Below, piece after piece: positions 3,416 through 61,900 of a DNA stretch of 64,000 nucleotides. The notes under the pieces are model-generated. The model had not been told where the DNA came from. It was given only the letters and a program-made list of their open reading frames with translations, and did not search any database. Numbering within the stretch: the stretch's first letter is position 1; every line of letters begins with the position of its first letter. The translations under genes were made by a program, and so were the position numbers. Source of the DNA: Eledone cirrhosa (Eukaryota); the NCBI GenBank assembly GCA_964016885.1, contig OZ024741.1, positions 214,210,001 through 214,274,000 of the forward strand. The letters are read 5' to 3'.

Positions 3416-3570
3416 ATTACAACAGAGACATAAACAGGTACTCAAGATTCGTTGGGTTCCGGGCCCCAACTCATTCAGCCTATCACGTTATTTTTCTCAT
3501 GACAGGCTGAACGAATTGGAGCCCAGAACCCAACGAAACTTGAGTACCTGTTTATGTCACTGTTGTAATT
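3416..3570. mobile_element. Palindromic element carrying two outward-facing variant hammerheads
   Basis: Arms attacaacagagacataaacaggtactcaag / cttgagtacctgtttatgtcactgttgtaat; hammerhead-like motifs at 3435-3482 (-) and 3503-3550 (+). Confidence 0.75.
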
Positions 3571-12709: not shown

Positions 12710-12740
<31 letters not shown>

Positions 12741-14274
12741 GAATATAGACATAGAATATTCGAAAATATTCTGTATGTTTATAATAAACATTTTGAAGAC
12801 CTAATCGCTATAGAATAGAATACGTCACGTATTACAATTAGATTCTCGATAAAAGCAAGGGAAGTAATCTACGCGTTTCATTCTTGTTAGAAATCATCAG
12901 GACTACATATCCAGTGCTTTTATCGAGAATGACACAGCTAGAGACTTATAGAATACTTAGCTGTGTACAGGAACTGGTTTGAAAGAGCGGTTGCCGGTCC
13001 GGCAGAAATTAGAAATTGGAATAAATGCTCTGAAATAGCGATATATATGTGAATATAGACATAGAATATTCGAAAATATTCTGTATGTTTATAATAAACA
13101 TTTTGAAGACCTAATCGCTATAGAATAGAATACGTCACGTATTACAATTAGATTCTCGATAAAAGCAAGGGAAGTAATCTACGCGTTTCATTCTTGTTAG
13201 AAATCATCAGGACTACATATCCAGTGCTTTTATCGAGAATGACACAGCTAGAGACTTATAGAATACTTAGCTGTGTACAGGAACTGGTTTGAAAGAGCGG
13301 TTGCCGGTCCGGCAGAAATTAGAAATTGGAATAAATGCTCTGAAATAGCGATATATATGTGAATATAGACATAGAATATTCGAAAATATTCTGTATGTTT
13401 ATAATAAACATTTTGAAGACCTAATCGCTATAGAATAGAATACGTCACGTATTACAATTAGATTCTCGATAAAAGCAAGGGAAGTAATCTACGCGTTTCA
13501 TTCTTGTTAGAAATCATCAGGACTACATATCCAGTGCTTTTATCGAGAATGACACAGCTAGAGACTTATAGAATACTTAGCTGTGTACAGGAACTGGTTT
13601 GAAAGAGCGGTTGCCGGTCCGGCAGAAATTAGAAATTGGAATAAATGCTCTGAAATAGCGATATATATGTGAATATAGACATAGAATATTCGAAAATATT
13701 CTGTATGTTTATAATAAACATTTTGAAGACCTAATCGCTATAGAATAGAATACGTCACGTATTACAATTAGATTCTCGATAAAAGCAAGGGAAGTAATCT
13801 ACGCGTTTCATTCTTGTTAGAAATCATCAGGACTACATATCCAGTGCTTTTATCGAGAATGACACAGCTAGAGACTTATAGAATACTTAGCTGTGTACAG
13901 GAACTGGTTTGAAAGAGCGGTTGCCGGTACGGCAGAAATTAGAAATTGGAATAAATGCTCTGAAATAGCGATATATATGTGAATATAGACATAGAATATT
14001 CGAAAATATTCTGTATGTTTATAATAAACATTTTGAAGACCTAATCGCTATAGAATAGAATACGTCACGTATTACAATTAGATTCTCGATAAAAGCAAGG
14101 GAAGTAATCTACGCGTTTCATTCTTGTTAGAAATCATCAGGACTACATATCCAGTGCTTTTATCGAGAATGACACAGCTAGAGACTTATAGAATACTTAG
14201 CTGTGTACAGGAACTGGTTTGAAAGAGCGGTTGCCGGTCCGGCAGAAATTAGAAATTGGAATAAATGCTCTGAA

Positions 14275-14277
<3 letters not shown>
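12741..14277 (-). mobile_element. Tandem array of 5 x 310-bp units, each with a type I hammerhead (non-LTR retrozyme-like)
   Basis: Unit starts at 12741, 13051, 13361, 13671 and 13981; only one substitution seen (c>a at 13929); flanked by (TA)n on both sides. Confidence 0.9.
12842..12930 (-). ncRNA. Type I hammerhead ribozyme with extended stem I (repeated every 310 bp)
   Basis: Minus: attctcgataaaagca..gtagtc-CTGATGA-t-TTCT aaca AGAA-t-GAAA-cgcgTA^gattac..tgcttttatcgagaat; palindromic stem III ACGCGT; predicted cut between 12869 and 12870. Confidence 0.9.
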
Positions 14278-14358
<81 letters not shown>

Positions 14359-34280: not shown

Positions 34281-36730
34281 TGGAGGAAGTTGTAGTTTAC
34301 TTGAAGCATAGCGTAGTGAGGTGTAAACGTTTGGAGTTAGAAGGCCAGAACAATGCAGGTATGGATATAGAATATAAATACAAATACAAAAGATATTGCT
34401 GACAATTAGTCTTTTACCTTAAATTTATTTGAATATCTTTAATTTTCGAGATAATATCTCTTCTTCGGAGGGAAGTAAAGGGGTTAATCCAGTGTTCTAA
34501 TTAGCTTGCCAAGTCATGCTGACAGGAAATAGTATAGAAATTCCATTCTATTTCTAATGTCAAAGAGTGAAGGTCAGGTGGATAAAGGGTTGTCTCCCTT
34601 TAAAAGGGTTTGGACATGTATGTCTAAGTGTGTGTGGGAGAATATGTGAGGGTGTAAGCACGCGTGTGTGTGTGAGTGTGAGAGGATATGTTTATATGTA
34701 AATGTGGGGCTATATGCTCTATCATGTTAAAACTGGTCTATGTGTGTGTATGTGTGTGTGAGAGATTAAGTGAAGGAGTAAGCGTGTGTGTGTGTGAGAT
34801 AGTACGTGGAGGTGTAAGTATGGGGCTAGGTGCTCTACCATGTTAAAAATTAGGTGTTGAATTCTAGTCTGTTATTGATTTGTGGTTGTGTTTTGTCTAT
34901 AATTAGTGCTTCTTTAATTCTAAGATTGTTGAGGTTTCTTTCCTTAGCTTCTATGCTAACTACTATGTTTTTGTCGGTGTTTTTGCATTTCACTAGATGT
35001 TTCTTAAATGAGGAAGCATTAGTGTTGAGGTGTTCTTTTATTCTAATGTGAAGTGGTCTGGTGGTGCTAAATACGTAGAAGTTGCTGCAATTGTCGCACT
35101 CTAATCTGTATACGACGTAAGCCTGGTGGTATAGGTCTGTGTCGTCGATGGGGCAGTTGGCTAGCCTGCAGCGGCTGTCATGTCAGGTGGTGTGTCCTTT
35201 GGTTAGCTGTCCGCGTAGAGAAGGTCCTGAGTGGGCTAGCTGGATATCTACTCCCTCTCGTCTGATAGCCCTGCGAATGGCTGTTGTTGTTTCGTCATTG
35301 AAGTGTGGGAGCTTCAGGAAGCAGGTGTTAGGGCCTCGGGTGTGGTGTTCTCTGTTGTTTCTGGCACGGTTCGCGGTGGACGTGGGGTATCCGTTCAGTT
35401 TAAGTACTGCCAGGAAATGTGTAGTGTGCGTGTCCCGGTCTCTTGCGTCGGTGTATTTGTTCCGGATACGTGTTAGTTCGTTCCTTATGGTATCCGAACT
35501 TAGTGTTGATTGAGAAGGCTGATCTGAAATGTACGAACAGGTCCCTGCTGGCGGTTTTTTATAGAAGCAGGTGTGGATGTCGCCTTCCTCTGTTACCCTG
35601 AGTTGGAAGTCCAATAGGGATAGGGATCCGCGGTAATCGGGGTATTCCATGCTGAACTATATATTGGCGTCCATGCTAGAGTATATCATGTATATTTTAT
35701 CCGCTTCTTCACGGGATGATGTAAGGATGAATATGTCATCTACATATCGGGTGAAGAAGGTATATGAATGGCAGGTGTTGAGGGCTCAGCATTCCAGCTG
35801 GTTCATATAAGTGATGGCCAGCAGGCCCGATAGGCTGGATCCCATGGGTAATCCTGTTGTCTGTCTGTATATGAGGTGGTGGAAGGTGAAGTACGTGTTG
35901 TCCACTGTGAAGGACAAAAGCTGGTGTATGTCCGTCGGATGGAGGCCGTAGCAGTTGACGTCTTCTGCGACCACGCAGTCCGTCAATAAATCAACAGGTG
36001 GATGAGCTGGGACTCTAGTGTAGAGGGAGACAACGTCGAGGCTAAAGGCGTATCTATTTAGTGTAAGTTGTTCTGGCTCGAGTTGGAGTAGTCTACGTAT
36101 GACCTCGTCGGAGCTACTGACATGCTCGAGAAAAGTGGAGAGTAGAGGCTTGAGGACCTGGGAGAGAGCCAGGAGATTTTGTATAGGGGCCCTTCTATGC
36201 TAGAGACGATGGGTCTTATTTGTGTCTTAGTACTATTCTTGTAGGTCTTGATGAGGTGATAGAAAGTGGGCAGTCTGCTATTTCTAGTGGTGTAATTGAA
36301 CTTAAATTTATTTGGGAGTTTTCTTCTACTACAGATGTCGAACCAGATGGATTTGGCCTGTTTTTCGATCTGGGCTGCAGTTATGTCCGGGATCTCTGTA
36401 TGCAGTTCGTTGTCATTTAAGTGTTCAAAGGCTAGGTTGTTGTTTGGGGCTTGAGAGATGACACAAAACTCTTTACCTTTGTCGGATGGTAAGTATATGT
36501 GTTCCCTATTCCGCTTGTTCTTCGGGGCGAGTTGTTGCGTCATGGAGAGGTTTGGGGCTATCTTCTTCTGTGTCCGTAAGATGTTAAATACGGAATGTTT
36601 TAGCCTCGATAGTTTTTCTTCAAGCTCGCGATTGGCAGGCGGTGGACAGAGTGGGCGGTCCAGTAGGTATATCGGGAATCTGGTTGTGTTACATTCCGTG
36701 GTGTTGATGCCGAGGGTCGATATCCATTTT
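34281..36730 (-). mobile_element. Penelope-like retrotransposon, 5'-truncated and decayed
   Basis: Flanked by (TA)n; degenerate hammerhead CCGAAGA-aGAGAT att ATCTC-GAAA near 34434-34470 in the 3' region. Confidence 0.85.
34850..36720 (-). pseudogene. Penelope RT + GIY-YIG endonuclease, frameshifted
   Basis: DKG; LPTFYHLIKTYK...IRPIVS; FTFHHLIYRQTTGLPMGSSLS; RYVDDI (~35735-35750); LNGYP; VVYRLECDNCSNFYV..TTRPLHIRIKEH; LRIKEALII...QIN. Confidence 0.9.
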
Positions 36731-36949
36731 AGTGTATATATATATATATATATATACTAGATTTTGGTTTTGCTTGATTAACAAGTCTCATGAGGAAATT
36801 GGGCAGTAGTTGGGTCTATAATATTAACTTGGACCCTGAACCACTCATCTGGGAAACGGTCGTAACTGTCCATAATTAATATAGACCCTGGTATGAAACC
36901 TCATTAAGTTCAAGTATAAACGAGACAAATACAGAGATGTAAAGACATA

Positions 36950-39212: not shown

Positions 39213-39592
39213 TATTGGCAGTATCAGTAGAGGGTCGGACGCCATGCTTTCCAGCATAGTTACGTCCCTTTACGATCTGAGTTCAAATCCCGCCGAGGTT
39301 GACTTGGCCTTTCATCCTTACGGGGTCGAAAAAATAAAGTGCCAGTAATGCACTGAGTAATTGCTGGCCTTGTGCCAAAAGTAGAAACAATTATTTAATA
39401 TAACAGTGGATTGGCAGTATCGGTAGAGGGTTGGATGCCATGCTTTGAAGCATAGAGTTACCTCCCTGTATGATCTGAGTTCAAATCCTGCTGAGGTTAA
39501 CTTTGCCTTTCATCCTTCCGGGGTCGATAAAATAAAGTACCAGTAATGCACTGGAGAATTGCTGGTCTTGTTCCAAAAGTAGAAACAATTAT
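39213..39592 (+). mobile_element. Two tandem tRNA-derived SINEs
   Basis: Copies at 39213-39392 and 39405-39592; the second is flanked by the duplication attatttaatataacagtg. Confidence 0.85.
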
Positions 39593-39839
39593 TTAATATA
39601 ACAGTGAATTGGTTATATCAGTGATTGGAGGTCTTGAACTTTCCTGTTTAATCCACTTGAAAAAGGCTTAAACACGAAACCACTGGCCCTCAAGTTTCTA
39701 GTACTGCCTCGCAGCTGGAATGAATGTACATGTGTGTGCGTGCATGTGTGCATGTGTGTGTGTGTGTGTGTGTGTGTGTAACAGTGTCTGTATATGTGTA
39801 ACAGTGTCTGTGTGTGTGTATGTGTGTGTATGTGAGTAA

Positions 39840-40885: not shown

Positions 40886-41776
40886 ATGGGAGAGGAAAAA
40901 AATAATGGAAGAGATACTCAAAGGAAGTTAAGAAAGAAGGAGAACGAACAGAGATGAGGTGAGGGAGATTCATTCAAACAAACTGCAGCGACATCTGTCG
41001 TTGTTGTCGTTTTGAGAGCCATGATTGCCTTGCCAGAACGAAGCACCCAGCAATGGTGTCAATTTTATTTATCAGGCGACATTTTTCATGCGTCTTCTTT
41101 GCTCCTTTTCCGCTCCTCACTTTATTTACATGTCATTTTTTTATAATGTTGTTAGATTTACGATCATTTCTCGTTGCTCCAATATATTCAGTTGAAAATG
41201 AGAACCAGAAGTAGCTGGGGGGTTAATCTTAAAATGGACTAGCGTCATGTCCGGGAGGTGTAGAGTCTTGTATTCTCAGTCGCTTAGCGCCAATAAAACG
41301 GGGATAAGTACCGGCCTAATTAGACTCCGGGCTTGGGATGGACTTTAGATATTTTCAATATTATATGTACAGTTGAGTTCAAATCCCGCCGAGGTTAACT
41401 TTGCATTTTATCCGTACGGGGTCGATAAAATAAAGTACCAGTCACGCACTGGGGTCGATTTAATCGACTTTACCCTCCCCCAAAATTGCTGGCCTTGTGC
41501 CTATATAAGAAACCATTATATGTACAGTTAATCAGCAGTAGCTGTAACACTCTAACCAGTTCTTTTTCCTATTGGTTGCCGTCCAGGCGTTCCCGTATCC
41601 TGGGCAGACGCTGCGGCCTCTATAGACCTATATGGACTCCTAACTACTGATTGTATTGTAAGGGCACCATAGTGATATAGAGCGTGATCTGGGCGCTTTT
41701 AATCCTGGCAGAAGCCATCCCCTCTCTAGGTCTGAATACAGCCGATTTCTTTCAGAGATAGAGTTAGAGAGGAGGG

Positions 41777-41778
41777 AT

Positions 41779-41862
<84 letters not shown>

Positions 41863-41892
41863 GGATATATAGATAGATAGATAGATAGATAT

Positions 41893-41935
<43 letters not shown>
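41777..41935. repeat. (GATA)n microsatellite at the 3' end of Tx1 copy 1
   Basis: ~40 GATA units directly abutting the element. Confidence 0.95.
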
Positions 41936-41936
<1 letters not shown>

Positions 41937-42167
41937 ATTTCTATTTATTTGCCACGAGGGCACAAAAGAAGGGGACATTTACACAGTGGGGGAGTTTACA
42001 TAAATCGAGTAAAGAAAAAAGGAATAACAATAATAATATAACAATAAAAAGTCCTCAAAAGGGAGGGGGCGTGTTGGGGATTGCACATACCCCCGAAAAG
42101 TGTGCAACTCTTTTCGCGGGGGAAGCCCAGAGAGGAGGCGCTCCCCCTTTCCTCTTCACTTCTTCAC

Positions 42168-45100
42168 CTACAGAACAATGTAGAGAGAAGGCCCATTTAC
42201 ACGGGCCATTCTCGCTTCTTTCACCCACCTTTCATAAAACTGTCTGGGACCAAGCACTTCTCTCTCCATCCTGATTCTTCTTCCGAAGTGGTATCGGAAG
42301 AAGTAAACCAGGTGATGGCCGGAGAGAAAGTCACCCGACCTCAGACCTTTCAGGCGCGTCCACCACACAACCTCTTTCATCATGGCTATTACGCACAGAA
42401 AGACCGCCTCTGCTTCATTTCTGAAGGGAGGAGGCGGCTTGATGTTCACCACAGACTCGGCGGTTAATCGAATCGGCGCCACACGCGACAGCAGTCGTTC
42501 GACGTAGCCCCACAGATCGGCAACGCCCGGGCAGTGTACCAGTGCATGCGCAACGGTTTCCTCGTCGCGCACGCATCTGGGACAGATCTTTTTCGCGGGA
42601 TCCCTGCCCGGGCGCCCGTGTCTGTAGAGCTTTTCTCGAACGGGCAGAGCCCCCCGGTAACACTGCCAGGCTAGGGACCTCTGGAAGTTGTCCATGGGTC
42701 CCGGGCCGAAAGTTCTACCGAACAGGCTGGCCAGTTCGTCCTCCTCCATGCCTAGCGACTCTCCAAGGGTGTCGTCGCCCCTGCTAGCCACCAACCCTCT
42801 ATAGAATGTCGAGGTGGATTCTCCACTGACAGTCGGGTCCGCTTGCCAGATAGCCGTGAGCGCCTGGGCACACTCAGTGTGCCAGTTGCCCAGTTTTCTC
42901 GGTCTTTGCTTCACCCAGGATTGCAGTTCGGTGAGCGAGACGAGCTGTGGGAAGGCTCGCCTCACAAACGGGGCCCACACCGGCTGACCGTTGAGGAATA
43001 CCTGTAGATGCCGTAGCCTCAATGCGTGCCTACGCATCAACAGCCACGGCATACCCAGCCCTCCTTTCGAAGGGTGCTGGCAGCAGATGGATCTCCTCAC
43101 CATGGGAGGCCGCTTCTTCCAGAGGAACTGGAAGAGCATGCGTTCCATGATGGTGAGCTTTTCCTTGGGGCAAGGCACGACGGTCAGGCGGTAGTAGATG
43201 ACGGACGCTATGTAAGCGTTCGTCACCTCCGCCGGACCTTTCAGTGATAGTTTGCACTTGGCCCACTTCTGGGTCAGCGCAAACACCCTGCTCGTCACCT
43301 CGCCCCAATTCTTCTCCTCCTGGAGGTCCGGTCCGAACCAGACCCCGAGCAGCTTCACCGGGCCCTCCGTCCACCGCCCGACGACACCGTCTAACGGCAT
43401 CGGTTTGCCCCTCCACGTTCCGAGTTGCAAACCGACTGACTTGTCCTGGTTCAGCTTAGCCCCCGTCAGCCTTTCGTATTCCTCCAGTAGGGTGGCGATC
43501 GCCCCGATTTCCGAGGCGTCCGCCACCATTACTGTTACGTCGTCGGCATAGGCCGAGACCGCTTTGTGCAATCCCGGTTCCAGGGGTATGCCCCGCAGCA
43601 ACTCCAACTTCCGCAGCAGTGGCTCGAGAGTCAATACGTACAGAAGGGAGGAGAGGGGGCACCCCTGTCTGATGGATCGGGTGATTTGAAACGGCTCCGA
43701 GAGGTAGCCGTTTACTTTAATCCTAGAGTAGATGTTGCCACTGTGCATGGCAGAAATCCAGCCCCTGAAAACGGGTCCGAAGCCCGCCGCCGCTAGCACC
43801 GCATCCAGGTAACCATGGTCGACCCTATCGAACGCCTTAGATTGATCCAAGTTGATCAGGGCCCCACCAAAGCCGGGTTCGTAGCCAACCCTCTCTATGA
43901 TGTATCGCATGAGGTGGAGGTTGTCGTGAATGGACCTGGACGGGATAGCGCATGTCTGCGCGTCTCCCACCAAACCACCCACCACAAGCGCCAACCTCTT
44001 CGCCAACACCTTGGCCAAAATCTGTAACTCTGCATTCAGCAGAGTTATGGGCCTAAAGTTACTTAAGTCGTCCCCCTTGCTCTCGTCCTTCCTCACTAGC
44101 GTGACCACGCCCTTGGTCACAGAACAGGGAATTCTCCCGTTCTGTTGCCAGTTGCAATAGACAGCCTCGAGGAGTTCGGAGAACAAGACCGGCATAGCTA
44201 AATAAAGTTCGTATGGTAGACCATCGAGACCCGGGGATTTGCGTCTGCTGCATTGGCTGAGCGCTTCCCCGATTTCAGTGGCTGTGATTGGCCCTTCGCA
44301 GCACTCCGCTTCGCCGCTCGAAAGACGCGGTAGACCGTCGAGGTATGGACCGAAGTCCACATCCCCGTCCGGCCCCCCGCCACCTCCGAACAGTCGAGCA
44401 AAGTGCCTTTGAAAGATCTCGCACATTCGCTCAGGTTCAAGGATCACCCGTCCATCCTGGTCTCGCAAAGACCGAATGGTGGATTTAATCCCACTCTTGG
44501 CTTCTGTCACGCGGGCCCAGCTAACAGCTTTGGTCCCCTCGTTTCCTAAAGCACGTATTTTACTTCGGACAACGCAGCCTTCGTGCTTCGCGTCAAAGAA
44601 CTGGCTCAATGCCGTTCTCGTCGCTAACACTCTGGCTACGTCTCCGCTCCTAATCGCCTCTTCTAGTTTATCTGTTAACTCCCTTTCCCTCCTATTTCTA
44701 TTCGCCGCTAGTTCCTTACTGTAACCTATCGAACTTACTCTAATCTCTCTCTTTAGAGATATCCACCACCTACTGTTGACGATCGCTCCCGTCAACCGCA
44801 TCTTAACTAAGCTACTAATCCGGTTTCTGTAATATTTCTTTGTCGGTAAGGACAAGTTCATCTTCCAGTAACCGGGACCCTGTCTATGCGTTCTATCAAG
44901 GTTGACCACGCAGGTCACTAATTTGTGATCTGAATAGCCAACCATGATCAGTTCTGGACAACTAAATACGTCCCTATCCTTACTCCTAACCAAAAACCTA
45001 TCTAGGTACGATCTAGATTGTCCACTGCGGTTTGCCCAGGTCCAGGTTGGCGCAGTTGGACAATCTAGTCGAAATCTATCGACCAGGTCGAATCGATCGA

Positions 45101-45596
45101 GTAACCCCTTGAGGCTGCTACACCCCCCTCTATCGGGACATGCCCCTGCATAGTCCCAACGCGCATCTAGGATTCCATTCCAGTCCCCCACTAAAAGCAG
45201 GGAACGCGACGTTCCTAGAAAAGTCTCCAGACGTTGGAAGAAGTCGGCTCTCTCCGCCCCGAAGGGAGCATAAAGACCGACCAGTCTGAAAGCCCCGCCT
45301 TCACCACCTCCGACGTCCAGCACCAGTAATCGACCCCCCGGGTCCGAGTGAACAATCTGTACGTCGAGAGTCAGACGTTTATCCAGCAGTACGGCAACTC
45401 CCCCCCCGCCTCCGGGTTGACAGAGAGATGCGTGCATCTCAAAGTCATCGAAGGCGGGCGCCAGCTGTCTCACGCTGCTGATCCGACTCTCGCAAACAAC
45501 CATCACATCTATACTTTGTGACCTGAGGTCACTTAGAAGCTTTGCTTGCTTCCAAGCTGAGCTCAGGCCACGCGCGTTCAAACAGCCAACTCTCAA
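42168..45596 (-). CDS. ORF2: APE endonuclease + reverse transcriptase + C-terminal Cys/His (zf-RVT-like) domain
   Basis: LNARGL, VCES, GDWN, SYLDRF, SDH (EN); KSPGLDG, FRPITLLN, DQSKAFDRVDH, IRQGCPLS, YADD, KLLGV (RT); CPRC..ET..HALVHC. The annotated start is TTG, not ATG. Confidence 0.95.
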   Translation of the reverse strand: MRVGCLNARGLSSAWKQAKLLSDLRSQSIDVMVVCESRISSVRQLAPAFDDFEMHASLCQPGGGGGVAVLLDKRLTLDVQIVHSDPGGRLLVLDVGGGEGGAFRLVGLYAPFGAERADFFQRLETFLGTSRSLLLVGDWNGILDARWDYAGACPDRGGCSSLKGLLDRFDLVDRFRLDCPTAPTWTWANRSGQSRSYLDRFLVRSKDRDVFSCPELIMVGYSDHKLVTCVVNLDRTHRQGPGYWKMNLSLPTKKYYRNRISSLVKMRLTGAIVNSRWWISLKREIRVSSIGYSKELAANRNRRERELTDKLEEAIRSGDVARVLATRTALSQFFDAKHEGCVVRSKIRALGNEGTKAVSWARVTEAKSGIKSTIRSLRDQDGRVILEPERMCEIFQRHFARLFGGGGGPDGDVDFGPYLDGLPRLSSGEAECCEGPITATEIGEALSQCSRRKSPGLDGLPYELYLAMPVLFSELLEAVYCNWQQNGRIPCSVTKGVVTLVRKDESKGDDLSNFRPITLLNAELQILAKVLAKRLALVVGGLVGDAQTCAIPSRSIHDNLHLMRYIIERVGYEPGFGGALINLDQSKAFDRVDHGYLDAVLAAAGFGPVFRGWISAMHSGNIYSRIKVNGYLSEPFQITRSIRQGCPLSSLLYVLTLEPLLRKLELLRGIPLEPGLHKAVSAYADDVTVMVADASEIGAIATLLEEYERLTGAKLNQDKSVGLQLGTWRGKPMPLDGVVGRWTEGPVKLLGVWFGPDLQEEKNWGEVTSRVFALTQKWAKCKLSLKGPAEVTNAYIASVIYYRLTVVPCPKEKLTIMERMLFQFLWKKRPPMVRRSICCQHPSKGGLGMPWLLMRRHALRLRHLQVFLNGQPVWAPFVRRAFPQLVSLTELQSWVKQRPRKLGNWHTECAQALTAIWQADPTVSGESTSTFYRGLVASRGDDTLGESLGMEEDELASLFGRTFGPGPMDNFQRSLAWQCYRGALPVREKLYRHGRPGRDPAKKICPRCVRDEETVAHALVHCPGVADLWGYVERLLSRVAPIRLTAESVVNIKPPPPFRNEAEAVFLCVIAMMKEVVWWTRLKGLRSGDFLSGHHLVYFFRYHFGRRIRMEREVLGPRQFYERWVKEARMARVNGPSLYIVL

Positions 45597-45601
45597 TTGA
45601 T

Positions 45602-47437
45602 CTATTTTGGTGTTGAAAGTGAAGAAAGAAAAGCACTTACCTCTCCGGGTTGCGTAATTTCCATGGCATCAGGTGTGTTGGGTGGAGGGATGTTTTGTGG
45701 TGGTGTGGGGGTACACGTGTGTGGTGGGGTTGGGGTATTTGGAGTTGTGTCAGGGAGAGGGGCGGTTATGGGGAAATCTTTCAAGAGGACGCGATTCAAC
45801 GGTTTTAAACAGGGGGGGCTCACGTCCCGTCTAAATTGTTCTTTTAAGGAACGATAAAGGTCCAGAGGGACCTTTATCATTTTTAAATGGGTGAAGTTCT
45901 CTGTTGAGATAAAGTTTGGCCCTTCGGTCTGCACCATAGGGTTATTGTTTATTAATTTAACCAGTTTTTTGTTTTCTTTATTTATATATGTGTATTGCAA
46001 CGTCTTTTTTTGTGATGCTGTCAATGTTTCGGAGAGGGGAGGCGCAGATTTATTTTTGTTTGTTGAGGGTGGGGTGTTTTTGATTGGAGTTGGTGTTTGT
46101 GTGTGGGTTATTTGTGGTGTGCTGGGTGTGTGTTTTCTTTTTTTTCTTTTAACTTGTCTGAAGGCTTCTCCTCCTTCTTCTTCAGAAGTTGGGGGAAACT
46201 CTTCAGCGCTAGGTGGGAGGGACGTGTTGTGTGGTTGTTTTTTTTTTGCGGGAGGGGTAGATTTGTTACTGTTTTTTTTATTATTTGTTTGGAATGGGTT
46301 TTGTGGTGGTGGTGGTGGTAATGTTTGTGTCGTGCTTGTGGTTGGTAATGGTGGTGGTGATGTTTGTGTTGTGGTTGGTGGTGGTGATTTTTGTGTCGTG
46401 CTTGTGTTTGGTGCTGGTGGTGGTGATGTTTGTGTTGTGTTTGTGGTTGGTGGTGTCTGTATTTTGTTTGCTGTGTGTGGTATTAGTGTATTTTTGGAGG
46501 TGGGTGGTGCTGGTGTACTGTTTGTGGTGGGTGTGGGCAATAGTCCTTTTTGGGGGATACGTTTCGGGCAGTTAGCCTTAACGTGTCCCCTTTCCATGCA
46601 TAAATAGCATGCTGGTCTTCTCCCCTCTACAATTATGTCTATTGGGGTAAGGTCATCCAGCCAGATGCGATCCGGGATTTGTGCTATTCTTTCGGGCCTC
46701 ATTTGGACTAGTATGTCGAGGCCCATTCCCAGGAACGCATCTCCAGTTGCCTTCCCCATTGACAGCATAGTGTCTTCGCCCATATCAATGAAGCCAGCAA
46801 TAGCCCACCAGAAGTCCATTGTGGGCAGCATTGTTTTTACTTTTATTCTCTGTGTTCTTCTACCCATGTAGGAGGGATAGAAGCTATATGTTGTCGACGA
46901 GAGTGGGCTTAGGGAAAGCTGAACCGCCGTTTCTTTGTCTCTTGTTAGGACCGAAATGCTGCCATAGAGTCGGTCCTTTCGTATGAAGAGAATATTCTTC
47001 ATATAGTCTTTTAGGACTAACTCTATTTCCATTTGGCTGGGCTGTGCTGGCTTTCTTGACTGGTTTAGTATAGTTCTGTATATAACTGTGTTTTCTGCTC
47101 TGGCTTTCTTGAATTCTGGGGGGGAGTTAATGGAAAACATTCCGTTCTCCCCCAAAACAATATGTTTCTTTGCTTCGGCCAGTTTTTCTCTGGCGGCAGT
47201 TAGGTCAATTGGTGTGTATGTAATGGATTGCTTTGTTTTCTGGGCGAAAGTTGCCCTGTCGTTATTTGTATTATTTTCTGTTTGTTTGTTTTCTGTTTGC
47301 TCATTTTCCTTAACATTTGTTTTTTCATTTTGTTTGTTTGTTTCAATGTCTAATTTTGTTGTAATTATTTTTTGTTCTTCAGACTTGGGGGGCGTGGCAG
47401 AGCTAATGGCAGACATGTCTGCCATCTTTTCCGCCAT
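45602..47437 (-). CDS. ORF1: nucleic-acid-binding protein with CCHC zinc knuckle and P/T-rich linker
   Basis: CYLCMERGHVKANC knuckle and KRKKRK basic patch; first ATG at 47437 (the ORF track starts at upstream TTG 47464). Confidence 0.85.
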   Translation of the reverse strand: MAEKMADMSAISSATPPKSEEQKIITTKLDIETNKQNEKTNVKENEQTENKQTENNTNNDRATFAQKTKQSITYTPIDLTAAREKLAEAKKHIVLGENGMFSINSPPEFKKARAENTVIYRTILNQSRKPAQPSQMEIELVLKDYMKNILFIRKDRLYGSISVLTRDKETAVQLSLSPLSSTTYSFYPSYMGRRTQRIKVKTMLPTMDFWWAIAGFIDMGEDTMLSMGKATGDAFLGMGLDILVQMRPERIAQIPDRIWLDDLTPIDIIVEGRRPACYLCMERGHVKANCPKRIPQKGLLPTPTTNSTPAPPTSKNTLIPHTANKIQTPPTTNTTQTSPPPAPNTSTTQKSPPPTTTQTSPPPLPTTSTTQTLPPPPPQNPFQTNNKKNSNKSTPPAKKKQPHNTSLPPSAEEFPPTSEEEGGEAFRQVKRKKRKHTPSTPQITHTQTPTPIKNTPPSTNKNKSAPPLSETLTASQKKTLQYTYINKENKKLVKLINNNPMVQTEGPNFISTENFTHLKMIKVPLDLYRSLKEQFRRDVSPPCLKPLNRVLLKDFPITAPLPDTTPNTPTPPHTCTPTPPQNIPPPNTPDAMEITQPGEVSAFLSSLSTPK

Positions 47438-47899
47438 GCTGCCAAGAAAGAAATTTTTCGGCAAAAATAGATATTTATTTTACCCCCTAAAAAGGGGGTA
47501 AATGCAAAAATGTTTCCCTAAATAACAGGGGTTAGTGTTCCAAATGTGTTGCACTAAAAAATTTATCCGGTACTTACAATAGTAAGGGTAAATCCCGATG
47601 GAATAGCGGAGCCGATGCGAAGCGTGTCTTACTCTATCAAGATAGATAGATAGATAGATAGATAGATAAATTTCTATTTATTTGCCACGAGGGTACAAAA
47701 GAAAGGGACATTTACACAGTGGGGGAGTTTACATAAATCGAGTAAAGAAAAAGGAATAACAATAATAATATAACAATAAAAAGTCCTCAAAAGGGAGGGG
47801 GCGTGTTGGGGATTGCACATACCCCCGAAAAGTGTGCAACTCTTTTCGCGGGGGAAGCCCAGAGAGGAGGCGCTCCCCCTTTCCTCTTCACTTCTTCAC

Positions 47900-50800
47900 C
47901 TACAGAACAATGTAGAGAGAAGGCCCATTTACACGGGCCATTCTCGCTTCTTTCACCCACCTTTCATAAAACTGTCTGGGACCAAGCACTTCTCTCTCCA
48001 TCCTGATTCTTCTTCCGAAGTGGTATCGGAAGAAGTAAACCAGGTGATGGCCGGAGAGAAAGTCACCCGACCTCAGACCTTTCAGGCGCGTCCACCACAC
48101 AACCTCTTTCATCATGGCTATTACGCACAGAAAGACCGCCTCTGCTTCATTTCTGAAGGGAGGGGGCGGCTTGAAGTTCACCACAGACTCGGCGGTTAAT
48201 CGAATCGGCGCCACACGCGACAGCAGTCGTTCGACGTAGCCCCACAGATCGGCAACGCCCGGGCAGTGTACCAGTGCATGCGCAACGGTTTCCTCGTCGC
48301 GCACGCATCTGGGACAGATCTTTTTCGCGGGATCCCTGCCCGGGCGCCCGTGTCTGTAGAGCTTTTCTCGAACGGGCAGAGCCCCCCGGTAACACTGCCA
48401 GGCTAGGGACCTCTGGAAGTTGTCCATGGGTCCCGGGCCGAAAGTTCTACCGAACAGGCTGGCCAGTTCGTCCTCCTCCATGCCTAGCGACTCTCCAAGG
48501 GTGTCGTCGCCCCTGCTAGCCACCAACCCTCTATAGAATGTCGAGGTGGATTCTCCACTGACAGTCGGGTCCGCTTGCCAGATAGCCGTGAGCGCCTGGG
48601 CACATTCAGTGTGCCAGTTGCCCAGTTTTCTCGGACTTTGCTTCACCCAGGATTGCAGTTCGGTGAGCGAGACGAGCTGTGGGAAGGCTCGCCTCACAAA
48701 CGGGGCCCACACCGGCTGACCGTTGAGGAATACCTGTAGATGCCGTAGCCTCAATGCGTGCCTACGCATCAACAGCCACGGCATACCCAGCCCTCCTTTC
48801 GAAGGGTGCTGGCAGCAGATGGATCTCCTCACCATGGGAGGCCGCTTCTTCCAGAGGAACTGGAAGAGCATGCGTTCCATGATGGTGAGCTTTTCCTTGG
48901 GGCAAGGCACGACGGTCAGGCGGTAGTAGATGACGGACGCTATGTAAGCGTTCGTCACCTCCGCCCGACCTTTCAGTGATAGTTTGCACTTGGCCCACTT
49001 CTGGGTCAGCGCAAACACCCTGCTCGTCACCTCGCCCCAATTCTTCTCCACCTGGAGGTCCGGTCCGAACCAGACCCCGAGCAGCTTCACCGGGCCCTCC
49101 GTCCACCGCCCGACGACACCGTCTAACGGCATCGGTTTGCCCCTCCACGTTCCGAGTTGCAAACCGACTGACTTGTCCTGGTTCAGCTTAGCCCCGTCAG
49201 CCTTTCGTATTCCTCCAGTAGGGTGGCGATCGCCCCGATTTCCGAGGCGTCCGCCACCATTACTGTTACGTCGTCGGCATAGGCCGAGACCGCTTTGTGC
49301 AATCCCGGTTCCAGGGGTATGCCCCGCAGCAACTCCAACTTCCGCAGCAGTGGCTCGCGAGTCAATACGTACAGAAGGGAGGAGAGGGGGCACCCCTGTC
49401 TGATGGATCGGATGATTTGAAACGGCTCCGAGAGGTAGCCGTTTACTTTAATCCTAGAGTAGATGTTGCCACTGTGCATGGCAGAAATCCAGCCCCTGAA
49501 AACGGGTCCGAAGCCCGCCGCCGCTAGCACCGCATCCAGGTAACCATGGTCGACCCTATCGAACGCCTTAGATTGATCCAAGTTGATCAGGGCCCCACCA
49601 AAGCCGGGTTCGTAGCCAACCCTCTCTATGATGTATCGCATGAGGTGGAGGTTGTCGTGAATGGACCTGGACGGGATAGCGCATGTCTGCGCGTCTCCCA
49701 CCAAACCACCCACCACAAGCGCCAACCTCTTCGCCAACACCTTGGCCAAAATCTGTAACTCTGCATTCAGCAGAGTTATGGGCCTAAAGTTACTTAAGTC
49801 GTCCCCCTTGCTCTCGTCCTTCCTCACTAGCGTGACCACGCCCTTGGTCACAGAACAGGGAATTCTCCCGTTCTGTTGCCAGTTGCAATAGACAGCCTCG
49901 AGGAGTTCGGAGAACAAGACCGGCATAGCTAAATAAAGTTCGTATGGTAGACCATCGAGACCCTGGGATTTGCGTCTGCTGCATTGGCTGAGCGCTTCCC
50001 CGATTTCAGTGGCTGTGATTGGCCTTTCGCAGCACTCCGCTTCGCCGCTCGAAAGACGCGGTAGACCGTCGAGGTATGGACCGAAGTCCACATCCCCGTC
50101 CGGCCCCCCGCCACCTCCGAACAGTCGAGCAAAGTGCCTTTGAAAGGTCTCGCACATTCGCTCAGGTTCAAGGATCACCCGTCCATCCTGGTCTCGCAAA
50201 GACCGAATGGTGGATTTAATCCCACTCTTGGCTTCTGTCACGCGGGCCCAGCTAACAGCTTTGGTCCCCTCGTTTCCTAAAGCACGTATTTTACTTCGGA
50301 CAACGCAGCCTTCGTGCTTCGCGTCAAAGAACTGGCTCAATGCCGTTCTCGTCGCTAACACTCTGGCTACGTCTCCGCTCCTAATCGCCTCTTCTAGTTT
50401 ATCTGTTAACTCCCTTTCCCTCCTATTTCTATTCGCCGCTAGTTCCTTACTGTAACCTATCGAACTTACTCTAATCTCTCTCTTTAGAGATATCCACCAC
50501 CTACTGTTGACGATCGCTCCCGTCAACCGCATCTTAACTAAGCTACTAATCCGGTTTCTGTAATCTTTCTTTGTCGGTAAGGACAAGTTCATCTTCCAGT
50601 AACCGGGACCCTGTCTATGCGTTCTATCAAGGTTGACCACGCAGGTCACTAATTTGTGATCTGAATAGCCAACCATGATCAGTTCTGGACAACTAAATAC
50701 GTCCCTATCCTTACTCCTAACCAAAAACCTATCTAGGTACGATCTAGATTGTCCACTGCGGTTTGCCCAGGTCCAGGTTGGCGCAGTTGGACAATCTAGT

Positions 50801-51330
50801 CGAAATCTATCGACCAGGTCGAATCGATCGAGTAACCCCTTGAGGCTGCTACACCCCCCTCTATCGGGACATACCCCTGCATAGTCCCAACGCGCATCTA
50901 GGATTCCATTCCAGTCCCCCACTAAAAGCAGGGAACGCGACGTTCCTAGAAAAGTCTCCAGACGTTGGAAGAAGTCGGCTCTTTCCGCCCCGAAGGGAGC
51001 ATAAAGACCGACCAGTCTGAAAGCCCCGCCTTCACCGCCTCCGACGTCCAGCACCAGTAATCGACCCCCCGGGTCCGAGTGAACAATCTGTACGTCGAGA
51101 GTCAGACGTTTATCCAGCAGTACGGCAACTCCCCCCCCCCCGCCTCCGGGTTGACAGAGAGATGCGTGCATCTCAAAGTCATCGAAGGCGGGCGCCAGCT
51201 GTCTCACGCTGCTGATCCGACTCTCGCAAACAACCATCACATCTATACTTTGTGACCTGAGGTCACTTAGAAGCTTTGCTTGCTTCCAAGCTGAGCCCAG
51301 GCCACGCGCGTTCAAACAGCCAACTCTCAA
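47900..51330 (-). pseudogene. ORF2 of copy 2, split by a 1-bp deletion in a C homopolymer at ~49192-49195
   Basis: gcccccg in copy 1 vs gccccg in copy 2; ORFs 49183-51330 and 47900-49393 join to give the copy-1 protein. Confidence 0.85.
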
Positions 51331-51335
51331 TTGAT

Positions 51336-53168
51336 CTATTTTGGTGTTGAAAGTGAAGAAAGAAAAGCACTTACCTCTCCGGGTTGCGTAATTTCCATGG
51401 CATCAGGTGTGTTGGGTGGAGGGATGTTTTGTGGTGGTGTGGGGGTACACGTGTGTGGTGGGGTTGGGGTATTTGGAGTTGTGTCAGGGAGAGGGGCGGT
51501 TATGGGGAAATATTTCAAGAGGACGCGATTCAACGGTTTTAAACAGGGGGGGCTCACGTCCCGTCTAAATTGTTCTTTTAAGGAACGATAAAGGTCCAGA
51601 GGGACCTTTATCATTTTTAAATGGGTGAAGTTCTCTGTTGAGATAAAGTTTGGCCCTTCGGTCTGCACCATAGGGTTATTGTTTATTAATTTAACCAGTT
51701 TTTTGTTTTCTTTATTTATATATGTGTATTGCAACGTCTTTTTTTGTGATGCTGTCAATGTTTCGGAGAGGGGAGGCGCAGATTTATTTTTGTTTGTTGA
51801 GGGTGGGGTGTTTTTGATTGGAGTTGGTGTTTGTGTGTGGGTTATTTGTGGTGTGCTGGGTGTGTGTTTTCTTTTTTTTCTTTTAACTTGTCTGAAGGCT
51901 TCTCCTCCTTCTTCTTCAGAAGTTGGGGGAAACTCTTCAGCGCTAGGTGGGAGGGACGTGTTGTGTGGTTGTTGTTTTTTTGCGGGAGGGGTAGATTTGT
52001 TACTGTTTTTTTTATTATTTGTTTGGAATGGGTTTTGTGGTGGTGGTGGTAATGTTTGTGTCGTGCTTGTGGTTGGTGATGGTGGTGGTGATGTTTGTGT
52101 TGTGGTTGGTGGTGGTGATTTTTGTGTCGTGCTTGTGTTTGGTGCTGGTGGTGGTGATGTTTGTGTTGTGTTTGTGGTTGGTGGTGTCTGTATTTTGTTT
52201 GCTGTGTGTGGTATTAGTGTATTTTTGGAGGTGGGTGGTGTTGGTGTACTGTTTGTGGTGGGTGTGGGCAATAGTCCTTTTTGGGGGATACGTTTCGGGC
52301 AGTTAGCCTTAACGTGTCCCCTTTCCATGCATAAATAGCATGCTGGTCTTCTCCCCTCTACAATTATGTCTATTGGGGTAAGGTCATCCAGCCAGATGCG
52401 ATCCGGGATTTGTGCTATTCTTTCGGGCCTCATTTGGACTAGTATGTCGGGGCCCATTCCCAGGAACGCATCTCCAGTTGCCTTCCCCATTGACAGCATT
52501 GTGTCTTCGCCCATATCAATGAAGCCAGCAATAGCCCACCAGAAGTCCATTGTGGGCAGCATTGTTTTTACTTTTACTCTCTGTGTTCTTCTACCCATGT
52601 AGGAGGGATAGAAGCTATATGTTGTCGACGAGAGTGGGCTTAGGGAAAGCTTCTCCGCCGTTTCTTTGTCTCTTGTTAGGACCGAAATGCTGCCATAGAG
52701 TCGGTCCTTTCGTATGAAGAGAATATTCTTCATATAGTCTTTTAGGACTAACTCTATTTCCATTTGGCTGGGCTGTGCTGGCTTTCTTGTCTGGTTCAGT
52801 ATAGTTCTGTAGAGAACTGTGTTTTCTGCTCTGGCTTTCTTGAATTCTGGGGGGGAGTTAATGGAAAACATTCCGTTCTCCCCCAAAACAATGTGTTTCT
52901 TTGCTTCGGCCAGTTTTTCTCTGGCGGCAGTTAGGTCAATTGGTGTGTATGTAATGGATTGTTTTGTTTTCTGGGCGAAAGTTGCCCTGTCGTTATTTGT
53001 ATTATTTTCTGTTTGTTTGTTTTCTGTTTGCTCATTTTCCTTAACATTTGTTTTTTCATTTTGTTTGTTTGTTTCAATGTCTAATTTTGTTGTAATTATT
53101 TTTTGTTCTTCAGACTTGGGGGGCGTGGCAGAGCTAATGGCAGACATGTCTGCCATCTTTTCCGCCAT
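51336..53168 (-). CDS. ORF1 of copy 2 (CCHC zinc knuckle)
   Basis: Intact; near-identical to 45602-47437. Confidence 0.85.
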   Translation of the reverse strand: MAEKMADMSAISSATPPKSEEQKIITTKLDIETNKQNEKTNVKENEQTENKQTENNTNNDRATFAQKTKQSITYTPIDLTAAREKLAEAKKHIVLGENGMFSINSPPEFKKARAENTVLYRTILNQTRKPAQPSQMEIELVLKDYMKNILFIRKDRLYGSISVLTRDKETAEKLSLSPLSSTTYSFYPSYMGRRTQRVKVKTMLPTMDFWWAIAGFIDMGEDTMLSMGKATGDAFLGMGPDILVQMRPERIAQIPDRIWLDDLTPIDIIVEGRRPACYLCMERGHVKANCPKRIPQKGLLPTPTTNSTPTPPTSKNTLIPHTANKIQTPPTTNTTQTSPPPAPNTSTTQKSPPPTTTQTSPPPSPTTSTTQTLPPPPQNPFQTNNKKNSNKSTPPAKKQQPHNTSLPPSAEEFPPTSEEEGGEAFRQVKRKKRKHTPSTPQITHTQTPTPIKNTPPSTNKNKSAPPLSETLTASQKKTLQYTYINKENKKLVKLINNNPMVQTEGPNFISTENFTHLKMIKVPLDLYRSLKEQFRRDVSPPCLKPLNRVLLKYFPITAPLPDTTPNTPTPPHTCTPTPPQNIPPPNTPDAMEITQPGEVSAFLSSLSTPK

Positions 53169-54111
53169 GCTGCCAAGAAAGAAATTTTTCGGCAAAAATA
53201 GATATTTATTTTACCCCCTAAAAAGGGGGTAAATGCAAAAATGTTTCCCTAAATAACAGGGGTTAGTGTTCCAAATGTGTTGCACTAAAAAATTTATCCG
53301 GTACTTACAATAGTAAGGGTAAATCCCGATGGAATAGCGGAGCCGATGCGAAGCGTGTCTTACTCTATCAAGATAGATAGATAGATAGATAGAGAGAGAG
53401 ATAGATAGATATGTTTCCGATAAAATAAAGCACTAGTAGTAACACACGGGGGTCGATTTAATCGATATTCCCCTCCTCTAAAATGGTTGGAATTATGCCT
53501 AAATCAGGCACTATTATTTTCACTGGTCCACTAAAACGATGATAGTTCAACACCCAGCACAACCAAGCCCCGCGGGGAGGAGTGGTTGTTTCAGCTCGTC
53601 TCCCTCGCCGTGTCCTCCGGGTCAATGCAATCTCCATCCTGTCGGACGTGATCCAAAGACGGAGGGCAAGTTAGCTGGTGGTGTAGGGCAAGTTAGCTGG
53701 TGGTGGAGGATACTCTTTCGAACGTCACTGCTACAACTAACGTACGTATTAAAACAAACTTTTCTTTACTAGTATTGAATGTATTTTCAAATAAAATTCG
53801 TTTGAATGTTCTAGCTTTTTTCTTTTCATACCGAGTATTAGAGATTATTGACCCGACCACGTATATTTACATTTATACACCCATGAACATCAACCAACTT
53901 ATAATGTAAGCCGCTAGTTATCTGGCTGTCTGCCTGGTTTGTCTGGCTTATGTTTCTGGTGCGATGTCACTTGGATAGCCCAAATTATGGAATGACAAAT
54001 ATTTTAATAAACCCCAAACACACAGCGATGTGTGATGTCGGTCCATGACACATGCATTGTTGTTTGTTTTGGTTAAGTCTTATAATCCCCTTTCAACCTT
54101 GTATGTCTGTG

Positions 54112-59475: not shown

Positions 59476-60065
59476 TATGTATATATATAGTTTGTGCATA
59501 TATACATATGTATATATATATATATATGTGTATGTATGTATGTATCTCTATATTTGTGTATGTACACATATATGTGTGTGTATGTATATTTATTTGTATG
59601 TACATAACTGTGTGACTTTACACCCGAAGGCTATCGTACTTTTCCACGAACTTGTGACGTAACAACAGCATGACATCGGATACAAGAGTGTAGACATGCG
59701 CACTCAGCCTCCTTGTTAAGAGAACGGCGTTTCTGTTGACAGTAAAATCAATACTGCACTTTCTTTCCACCCACCTCAGGTGAAACACCCAGTTTATCTT
59801 GCTACCTCGCTTGCTGCTCTTGCACTTATCTATCTATCTATCTATCTATCTCTCTGTCTATCTATCTATCTATCTATCTATCTATCACACACTCTCTCTC
59901 TCTGTCGTTCTCACTCTCTTTCTCTCTCTCACTCTCTCTCTCGTTCGTTCTGTATATATATATATATATATATATACATGGAAAGTTATATTTAAATTGT
60001 TGGGTTACAACGAGTAAATATTTATAACTGATATAAAAGCACTCAACAAGTATTTGGAGTATATT

Positions 60066-61049: not shown

Positions 61050-61900
61050 CATAATCGAAGCATGTACGCACTAACGTGCCAGGTCTCTTCTTCAGGGCAT
61101 TGGACGAATGTTTCCCGGCTTCACACAGGTACCACAAAATCTTCAATCGGCACACCGTGAAGTTCTCATTTTCCACGGAGCCCAACATGGTGGACTACAT
61201 GGCCATGATCAACGCGTTGAAATTGAGGACACTCATGGGCGCAACGATCAGGCACCAGACCCGCTGGGGGAGTTGCGGGAAGAGCACGCGGAAGTGGCTG
61301 ATGGTTCTGGGGACGTGCTTGGGGAAGACCCGCGGCTGCGGAGGACCCCAGGCCTGCCAGAAGAGACCAGCTGGTGGTGAACATTGAGTCCACCACTCCG
61401 CCGGAGCACCACTCGAGGACCGGTGAGAAAACAAATAAGACGCTAGGACCACGTAACGGGAGTTGCAAAAATGATGCACGGACATGTAACTGCCGTGTCA
61501 GTGAGGAGTGCCCTCTGCAGAGAATGTGCCTGACTAAGGGCGTTGTATACAGATGTGTGGTTACAACGCACAACGATAGCCACACATACATCGGAGCTAC
61601 ATCCACGACTTTTAAGTCGTGGATGTACAACCACAAGAGCTCGTTGAAGGACAGGAACAAGAGACATTCCACCAGATTGGCGGACTTAGTGTGGAGACTC
61701 AAAGACAATAGCATTGAATACGACTTCAGCTGGGGTATTGTTCAGCATGCGAATGCGTACTCGGCCGGAGACAGGTGGTGCAAGTTATGCCTATCCGAGG
61801 CTATGGAGATAGTAAAATTAAGGGCGACACAGTCAACCTCAAGTCTGAAATAATCCTGGCATGCCGACATCAATGTAAATGCACACTCTCCGCCCTAGTG
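61050..61900 (+). pseudogene. Penelope-like (Neptune-type) C-terminal linker + GIY-YIG endonuclease fragment
   Basis: FFRALDECFPASHRYHKIFNRHTVKFSFS..PNM; CNCR...CPLQRMCLTKGVVYRC...TYIGATSTTFK...NHK; CKLCLSE. Confidence 0.85.

Follow-up and report, generated by a model that had tools for sequence, protein, structure and literature searches.

The question at this locus, where two copies of a LINE lie one behind the other between GATA repeats, was whether such a repeat is the target of the element or a tail carried by it. In the window, i.e., the whole stretch of 64,000 nucleotides that was analysed, the two copies were found in head-to-tail order, both on the minus strand, ~5.7 kb each and bracketed by GATA runs; the family represented by both is called E1 here. 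The 3' flank of copy 1 was a (GATA)40 array on the plus strand (41776–41935) with 93% matches to the repeat and perfect runs of 16, 5, and 10 units. Copy 1 (41935–47640, minus strand) was full-length with 5706 bp. Its 3' UTR (41935–42167) contained AATAAA at 41944–41949, 8–9 nt short of the end, and was devoid of poly(A). On the same strand, the ORF2 (42168–45668) contained 1166 open codons with an APE endonuclease, a reverse transcriptase (RT) with the YADD motif and a C-terminal CCHC motif, as seen from the frame, Pfam and motifs, whereas the ORF1 (45602–47437) encoded 611 aa, with one CX2CX4HX4C knuckle and a Pro/Thr-rich linker according to the frame and a motif scan. The 5' UTR (47438–47640) began with TTGATAGAG, where GATAGA is the target inverted. 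A (GATA)7 run (47641–47668, plus strand), found in the repeat scan, separated copy 1 from copy 2 (47668–53371, minus strand), which was also full-length with 5704 bp. The ORF1 of copy 2 was open (51336–53168) and its ORF2 was frameshifted by 1 bp near 49191; both ORFs of copy 1 were open. The 5' flank of copy 2 (53372–53411, plus strand) contained (GATA)5 at 53372–53391, a GA run, and (GATA)3 at 53400–53411.

The junctions of both copies were TATC followed by TTGATAGAGTAAG at the 5' end and AATAAATAGAAATT(T) followed by ATCTATC at the 3' end, where the border was ambiguous by one base; poly(A) was absent from both. A sequence-only reading of this DNA had given the same order, (GATA)~40, copy 1, (GATA)7, copy 2, and (GATA)5, with one junction phase in both copies and no poly(A); the repeat scan and the alignment confirmed the order, and the sequence confirmed the junctions. 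Alignment of copy 1 with copy 2 contained 42 differing columns, including 34 substitutions. The nearest copies elsewhere differed from copy 1 by 8 and from copy 2 by 21 substitutions. As each copy was nearer to copies elsewhere than to the other, the two are independent insertions and not a tandem duplication. An unoccupied (TATC)6 and (TATC)7 array, a potential target, was present 6 kb away at 59827–59886. Other repeats were a 310-bp unit (12731–14288; 5 copies, 99%) and a 198-bp SINE-like unit (39214–39612; 2 copies); the window contained 17 occurrences of the SINE-like 8-mer. Decayed frames were found at 35183–35656, 36058–36756, and 61302–61853, which had no Pfam matches and which we take to resemble pieces of a Penelope-type RT and a GIY-YIG endonuclease.

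The ORF2 of copy 1 matched the Pfam families Exo_endo_phos and RVT_1, and also zf-RVT, though below its cut-off; no Pfam match to RNase H was found. A motif check found the catalytic motifs of the endonuclease and the RT intact. Since an APE endonuclease, an RT and a C-terminal CCHC motif were present and an RNase H match was absent, E1 belongs to the L1 group (L1 and Tx1) of LINEs. Among solved structures the best relative of ORF2 was human L1 ORF2p with 168 bits, against 82 bits for R2. Three YTX2-named fish proteins scored 312–325 bits and a shorter TX1-named alligator protein 287, all of them picked by names that come from automatic annotation; the closest named homologue was a protein of Argonauta (67%), which makes an octopod the likely host. 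The ORF1 of the Tx1 clade carries a gag-like CCHC knuckle, whereas vertebrate L1 has a poly(A) tail and an L1-type ORF1. The knuckle of E1 was found at residue 291 of the ORF1 frame, no Pfam family matched ORF1, and poly(A) was present in 0 of 102 3' ends, so that E1 lacked these traits of vertebrate L1. In a FastTree tree of 32 RTs, built with neither an L1 outgroup nor Repbase references and hence unrooted by outgroup, E1 and its sister families formed a clade of their own with protein P0001 and the Argonauta protein, grouping with unnamed proteins and apart from the alligator and other vertebrate TX1-named proteins. Membership in the Tx1 clade, as claimed in the sequence-only reading, is favoured by similarity (312–325 against 168 bits) and by architecture, as distinct from a placement in a rooted tree. 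The ORF2 overlapped the end of ORF1 at 45602–45668 and contained no ATG ahead of the first endonuclease motif, unlike a sister copy (C3), which had a Met there. A GTAAGT was present 39 nt upstream of the last base of the ORF1 stop.

The junction context was examined with exact-pattern counts of 22–25-mers across the assembly, 3.0 Gb in size. The first 22 nt of E1 had 566 matches genome-wide, all of one phase and orientation where TATC stood directly upstream (557 of 566), whereas the reversed control pattern of the 5' end had 0 matches. Among the fetched 5' flanks, those of the window included, 111 of 112 ended in TATC and 106 of 112 in TATCTATC. The latter started at 1.3e-4 of the positions in the rest of the window, and chance is therefore excluded as the origin of the junction context. 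At the 3' end, TATC was found after one base in 99 of 102 sampled copies, and a separate count gave 30 of 30; 2 of the 102 flanks opened in (TC)n, and 16 contained only 0–1 TATC units. A published criterion for a target-specific element is one sequence type in >20% of the flanks (PMC4494074); the shares in E1, 557/566 at the 5' end and 99/102 at the 3' end, support the earlier proposal of a (TATC)n-specific family. The patterns named beforehand as speaking against it, GATA at the 3' end only with unique 5' flanks, or random insertion, were not found genome-wide.

The two sides of the copies differed. The left (5') flank matched the repeat at 0.82 or more over 20 nt and less beyond, and the left TATC run had a narrow mode of 5–6 units, whereas the right run was broad, from 0 to 20 units. 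In 40 of 94 paired flanks the right flank was interrupted within 20 nt. The interruption was repeated on the left in 5 of these 40 rows (one tandem locus counted twice, one clear case, and two doubtful), and the left 20 nt were pure TATC in 23 of the 40. A 20-nt duplication with an interruption was present in full-length L025/L049, and one tandem locus contained a 20-nt duplication and 12 extra nt of TATC. The 5' end was missing in five copies, a small sample, and TATC was directly upstream in 3 of these: L145, with an interrupted target duplication of 18 nt, L146, with one of 12–16 nt, and the chimera-like L310, preceded by (TATC)24. L147 was joined straight to the 3' end of a sister copy and had no TATC upstream, and L314 had none either. 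A search for empty sites among the fetched loci gave only family-on-family matches among the matches listed.

The narrow left run of 5–6 units, with unique DNA just past it in many copies, would also be expected if TATC at both ends were encoded by the element as leader and tail, and insertion were random. A truncated copy, however, cannot carry such a leader, and yet 3 of the 5 had TATC upstream, two of them with interrupted duplications; 45 of 112 5' flanks lay directly behind the 3' end of another family member, and the flanks often ran on as degenerate repeat. We consider an encoded repeat highly improbable. As truncated copies carry interrupted target duplications of 12–18 nt, (TATC)n/(GATA)n is a pre-existing insertion target and not an element-encoded tail.

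In our study, E1 was found to be one of several families sharing the GATA target. Two sister 3'-end patterns were present in the same arrays with 6,796 (sister B) and 3,769 matches, more than 10,000 together. In the better-preserved copies the ORF2 of the sisters was ~80–86% identical to that of E1, whereas the ORF1 was ~40–54% identical and the 5' UTRs differed. Sister copies used the GATA arrays more loosely and also occurred in TATA, TACC, and TATT contexts; their target duplications were non-periodic and 7–21 nt long, e.g., 19 nt in the truncated copy L209 and 21 nt in the truncated copy L236. Full-length sister copies also began in phase after TATC. Three full-length sister B copies from two loci (L273, L274, and L275) had a common interrupted leader, TCTCTCTCTAT, ahead of the start, which is possibly a carried-over 5' flank. 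Five copies (L144, L074, L163, L179, and L310) were chimeras of E1 with a related family, and in several of them the switch lay at homologous positions; this suggests template switching or recombination within the arrays. Insertion leaves repeat sequence to either side of the new copy, so E1 and sister copies stack, and in this genome the GATA microsatellites are hot spots of insertion in which elements pile up.

The looser sisters bear on how the target is chosen. An endonuclease with little selectivity, cutting TAT-rich sites, could be combined with a GATA preference that arises mainly from RNA–DNA annealing, both when reverse transcription is primed and when the 5' end is joined. The TATA, TACC, and TATT contexts of sisters whose ORF2 is 80–86% identical would agree with this, as would the 16 of 102 E1 3' flanks with 0–1 TATC units and the minor-groove loop of the E1 endonuclease, which has 9 residues and aligns without gaps to that of human L1, as against 11 residues in Tx1L (PMC1950540). 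On the other hand, the interrupted duplications of the truncated copies begin at TATC, which places the first nick within the repeat, and the endonuclease of Tx1L is sequence-specific in vitro (PMC1950540). We regard the loose endonuclease as a possible explanation, though as the less probable one; the specificity of the E1 endonuclease for GATA is inferred here from the flanks, and a part of it may come from RNA–DNA pairing.

The E1 family comprised ~600 copies, almost always full-length. We sampled 90 E1 3' ends from assembly sequence C1 and from C2 up to 123 Mb; 76 paired with the exact 5' motif. Of the remaining 14, 8 were full-length and had variant starts, 3 were truncated, 2 were chimeric, and the last was sister-like. 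The 5' end was kept in 84 of 90 E1 copies, whereas it was kept in 11 of 60 sister copies (93% vs. 18%; 5/30 and 6/30 in the two sister samples; Fisher p = 5e-22). Further E1 copies from C2 were full-length in 9 of 9 cases, and among 20 of the 21 copies that did not pair within the first 100 listed, 18 had a 5' end, 8 of the type of the window and 10 of an older type. Genome-wide k-mer counts along E1 were 566 (position 1), 589 (1023), 677 (5539), and 552 (end). For sister B, 451 5' ends were found per 6,796 3' ends, a ratio that is a lower bound because the 3' motif also matches older subfamilies with other starts. Some truncations of the sisters may be due to later breakage or to unrecognised 5' UTRs. 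The older E1 subfamily, with the 5' end TCCGGATGG, was represented by these 10 copies, all full-length (L301, L302, L306–L309, L311–L313, and L317). They were 93–96% identical over the body, had another 5' UTR and another ORF1 start, and lay in phase after a TATC-type repeat; the comparison with the copies of the window type indicates a 5' replacement within the lineage.

Youth alone does not explain the full-length bias, because E1 copies at 93–97% identity were still whole and several sister B copies at 99–100% were cut. The excess could also have arisen after insertion, through tandem or segmental duplication, gene conversion or an assembly artefact, and tandem arrays and chimeras with sisters (L144, L074) do occur. 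Most copies, however, had their own flanks, copies of 93–97% identity remained full-length, the two copies in the window each had a closer relative elsewhere (at 8 and 21 substitutions) than in one another (34 substitutions), and the sisters were mostly truncated in the same assembly, all of which makes such an origin unlikely. Two further candidates were rejected. The perfect 5' hairpin (TCTATC-TT-GATAGA) gave a weak fold and is not the cause of the bias, since the TCCGGATGG subfamily lacks it and is also full-length; a short master starting near 3440, as the source of the truncated sister B copies, had only 2 exact matches genome-wide. An Rfam scan found no ribozyme family at the 5' end of E1 and nothing near the gathering score.

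The E1 family looks recently active, because 21 of 70 other aligned copies were within 0.5% of copy 1 and both ORFs were open in 10 of 69 fetched full-length copies. Copy 1 had been taken to be intact and probably active. Both of its ORFs are indeed open, whereas the case for its activity is weaker than claimed: three private substitutions were found, one of them at a codon that encodes Arg in human L1 and in all 62 other copies that could be scored (7 could not), which makes its activity uncertain, and copy 1 itself may not be active. The 5' 241 nt of copy 1 (47400–47640) were spanned at 99% or more by contigs of two other organisms from one study (runs X5 and X6); close relatives, recent spread, and mislabelled samples are alternative sources of these contigs. 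No RNA run was listed among the sequencing runs that contain the sequence, which has no bearing on expression.

On balance, we consider it probable that E1 is a young LINE of the L1/Tx1 group that inserts into (TATC)n/(GATA)n in one orientation and phase and nearly always in full length, presumably as a result of a GATA-strand nick by the endonuclease and of RNA pairing with the target at both ends. Because the 3' flanks start at TATC, target-primed reverse transcription would start from a GATA^GATA nick in the strand complementary to the sense strand of the element. With AATAAA 8–9 nt before the end, the RNA would be cleaved within the flanking repeat; transcripts would pass AATAAA into the flanking UAUC, which would anneal to the nicked primer and give an exact 3' junction without poly(A). 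Some insertions duplicate 12–20 nt of target. At the other end, the RNA would start in the upstream repeat, which would account for the stretch of pure TATC, ~20 nt, that precedes full-length copies, and the finished cDNA would anneal in phase to the TATC strand. Such an annealing leader would overwrite the duplication, in line with the 23 of 40 pure-TATC left flanks beside interrupted right flanks; left flanks of pure TATC are also compatible with short duplications within a run that was there before. Pairing at both ends has precedents in R2Ol (PMC6530143) and in SART1Bm and R1Bm (PMC7265360). Against this reading, 2 of the 5 copies without a 5' end (L147 and L314) had no TATC upstream. An RNA leader would explain the precision of the junctions and not the scarcity of truncation, because full-length sisters also start in phase and yet the sisters are mostly truncated. 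For the few truncated copies of the E1 lineage we are less sure: the E1 protein might join the 5' end mainly by pairing or might be more processive, and a stricter joining step or a higher processivity of the E1 proteins is our guess. That E1 has nearly lost 5' truncation, finishing only through a target-derived RNA leader paired to the cut site, while same-target sisters with an ORF2 80–86% identical truncate freely, is a tentative proposal which we think somewhat doubtful.

The reason for the 5' truncation of most LINE copies is, to our knowledge, unsettled. Close families in one genome, on one target, with a ~fivefold difference in the full-length share (93% vs. 18%) form a natural experiment, and if E1 has nearly lost truncation, the pair of E1 and its sister would expose a determinant of this process. 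E1 would then insert full-length copies precisely into GATA repeats, which are common in animal genomes; a specific enzyme of this kind could interest gene delivery, although the target sites would be many. A new target alone is incremental, because Tx1-type LINEs are already known to target microsatellites, and the contrast in full-length share between the sisters is the most testable lead. The cited LINE literature names TC, TTC, TTCC/TTTC, ACAY, AC, TAA, and TG as targets (PMC4494074 and PMC3812793 among the sources). A search of the literature, as distinct from Repbase and Dfam, yielded no LINE with (TATC)n/(GATA)n as its target, and a figure and the supplements of PMC4494074 list further targets that may bear on this novelty; the (TATC)n target of E1 is apparently unpublished and is expected in type. 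In Octopus vulgaris, 13 young, recently active L1-Tx1 families have been described (PMC13282606), and the text of that paper on these families does not use the word 'target'.

Among the known systems, Kibi and Koshi of teleosts belong to the Tx1 clade and insert into (TC)n and (TTC)n, respectively (PMC4494074, PMC3812793). E1 resembles them as an APE-type LINE of the L1/Tx1 group in a pyrimidine-rich microsatellite, and is set apart by its target, (TATC)n with junctions in TATC phase, and by a host that is likely an octopod. Crocodilian Tx1 families are found in (TTCC)n/(TTTC)n (PMC4494074); as in E1, the target is a tetranucleotide and several related families share it, whereas the repeat unit differs. 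Tx1L of Xenopus is, like E1, a site-specific APE LINE, but its target is a DNA transposon and its endonuclease loop has 11 residues (PMC1950540), whereas E1 has a loop of 9 residues and the target (TATC)n. In R2Ol/R2Bm, R1Bm, and SART1Bm, target sequence borne by the RNA improves priming, and upstream target sequence raises full-length insertion (PMC6530143, PMC7265360); the endonuclease of R2 is of a different type (PMC4640811). E1 would resemble these elements in its mode of insertion, whereas their clades and their targets, rDNA and telomere, differ from those of E1.
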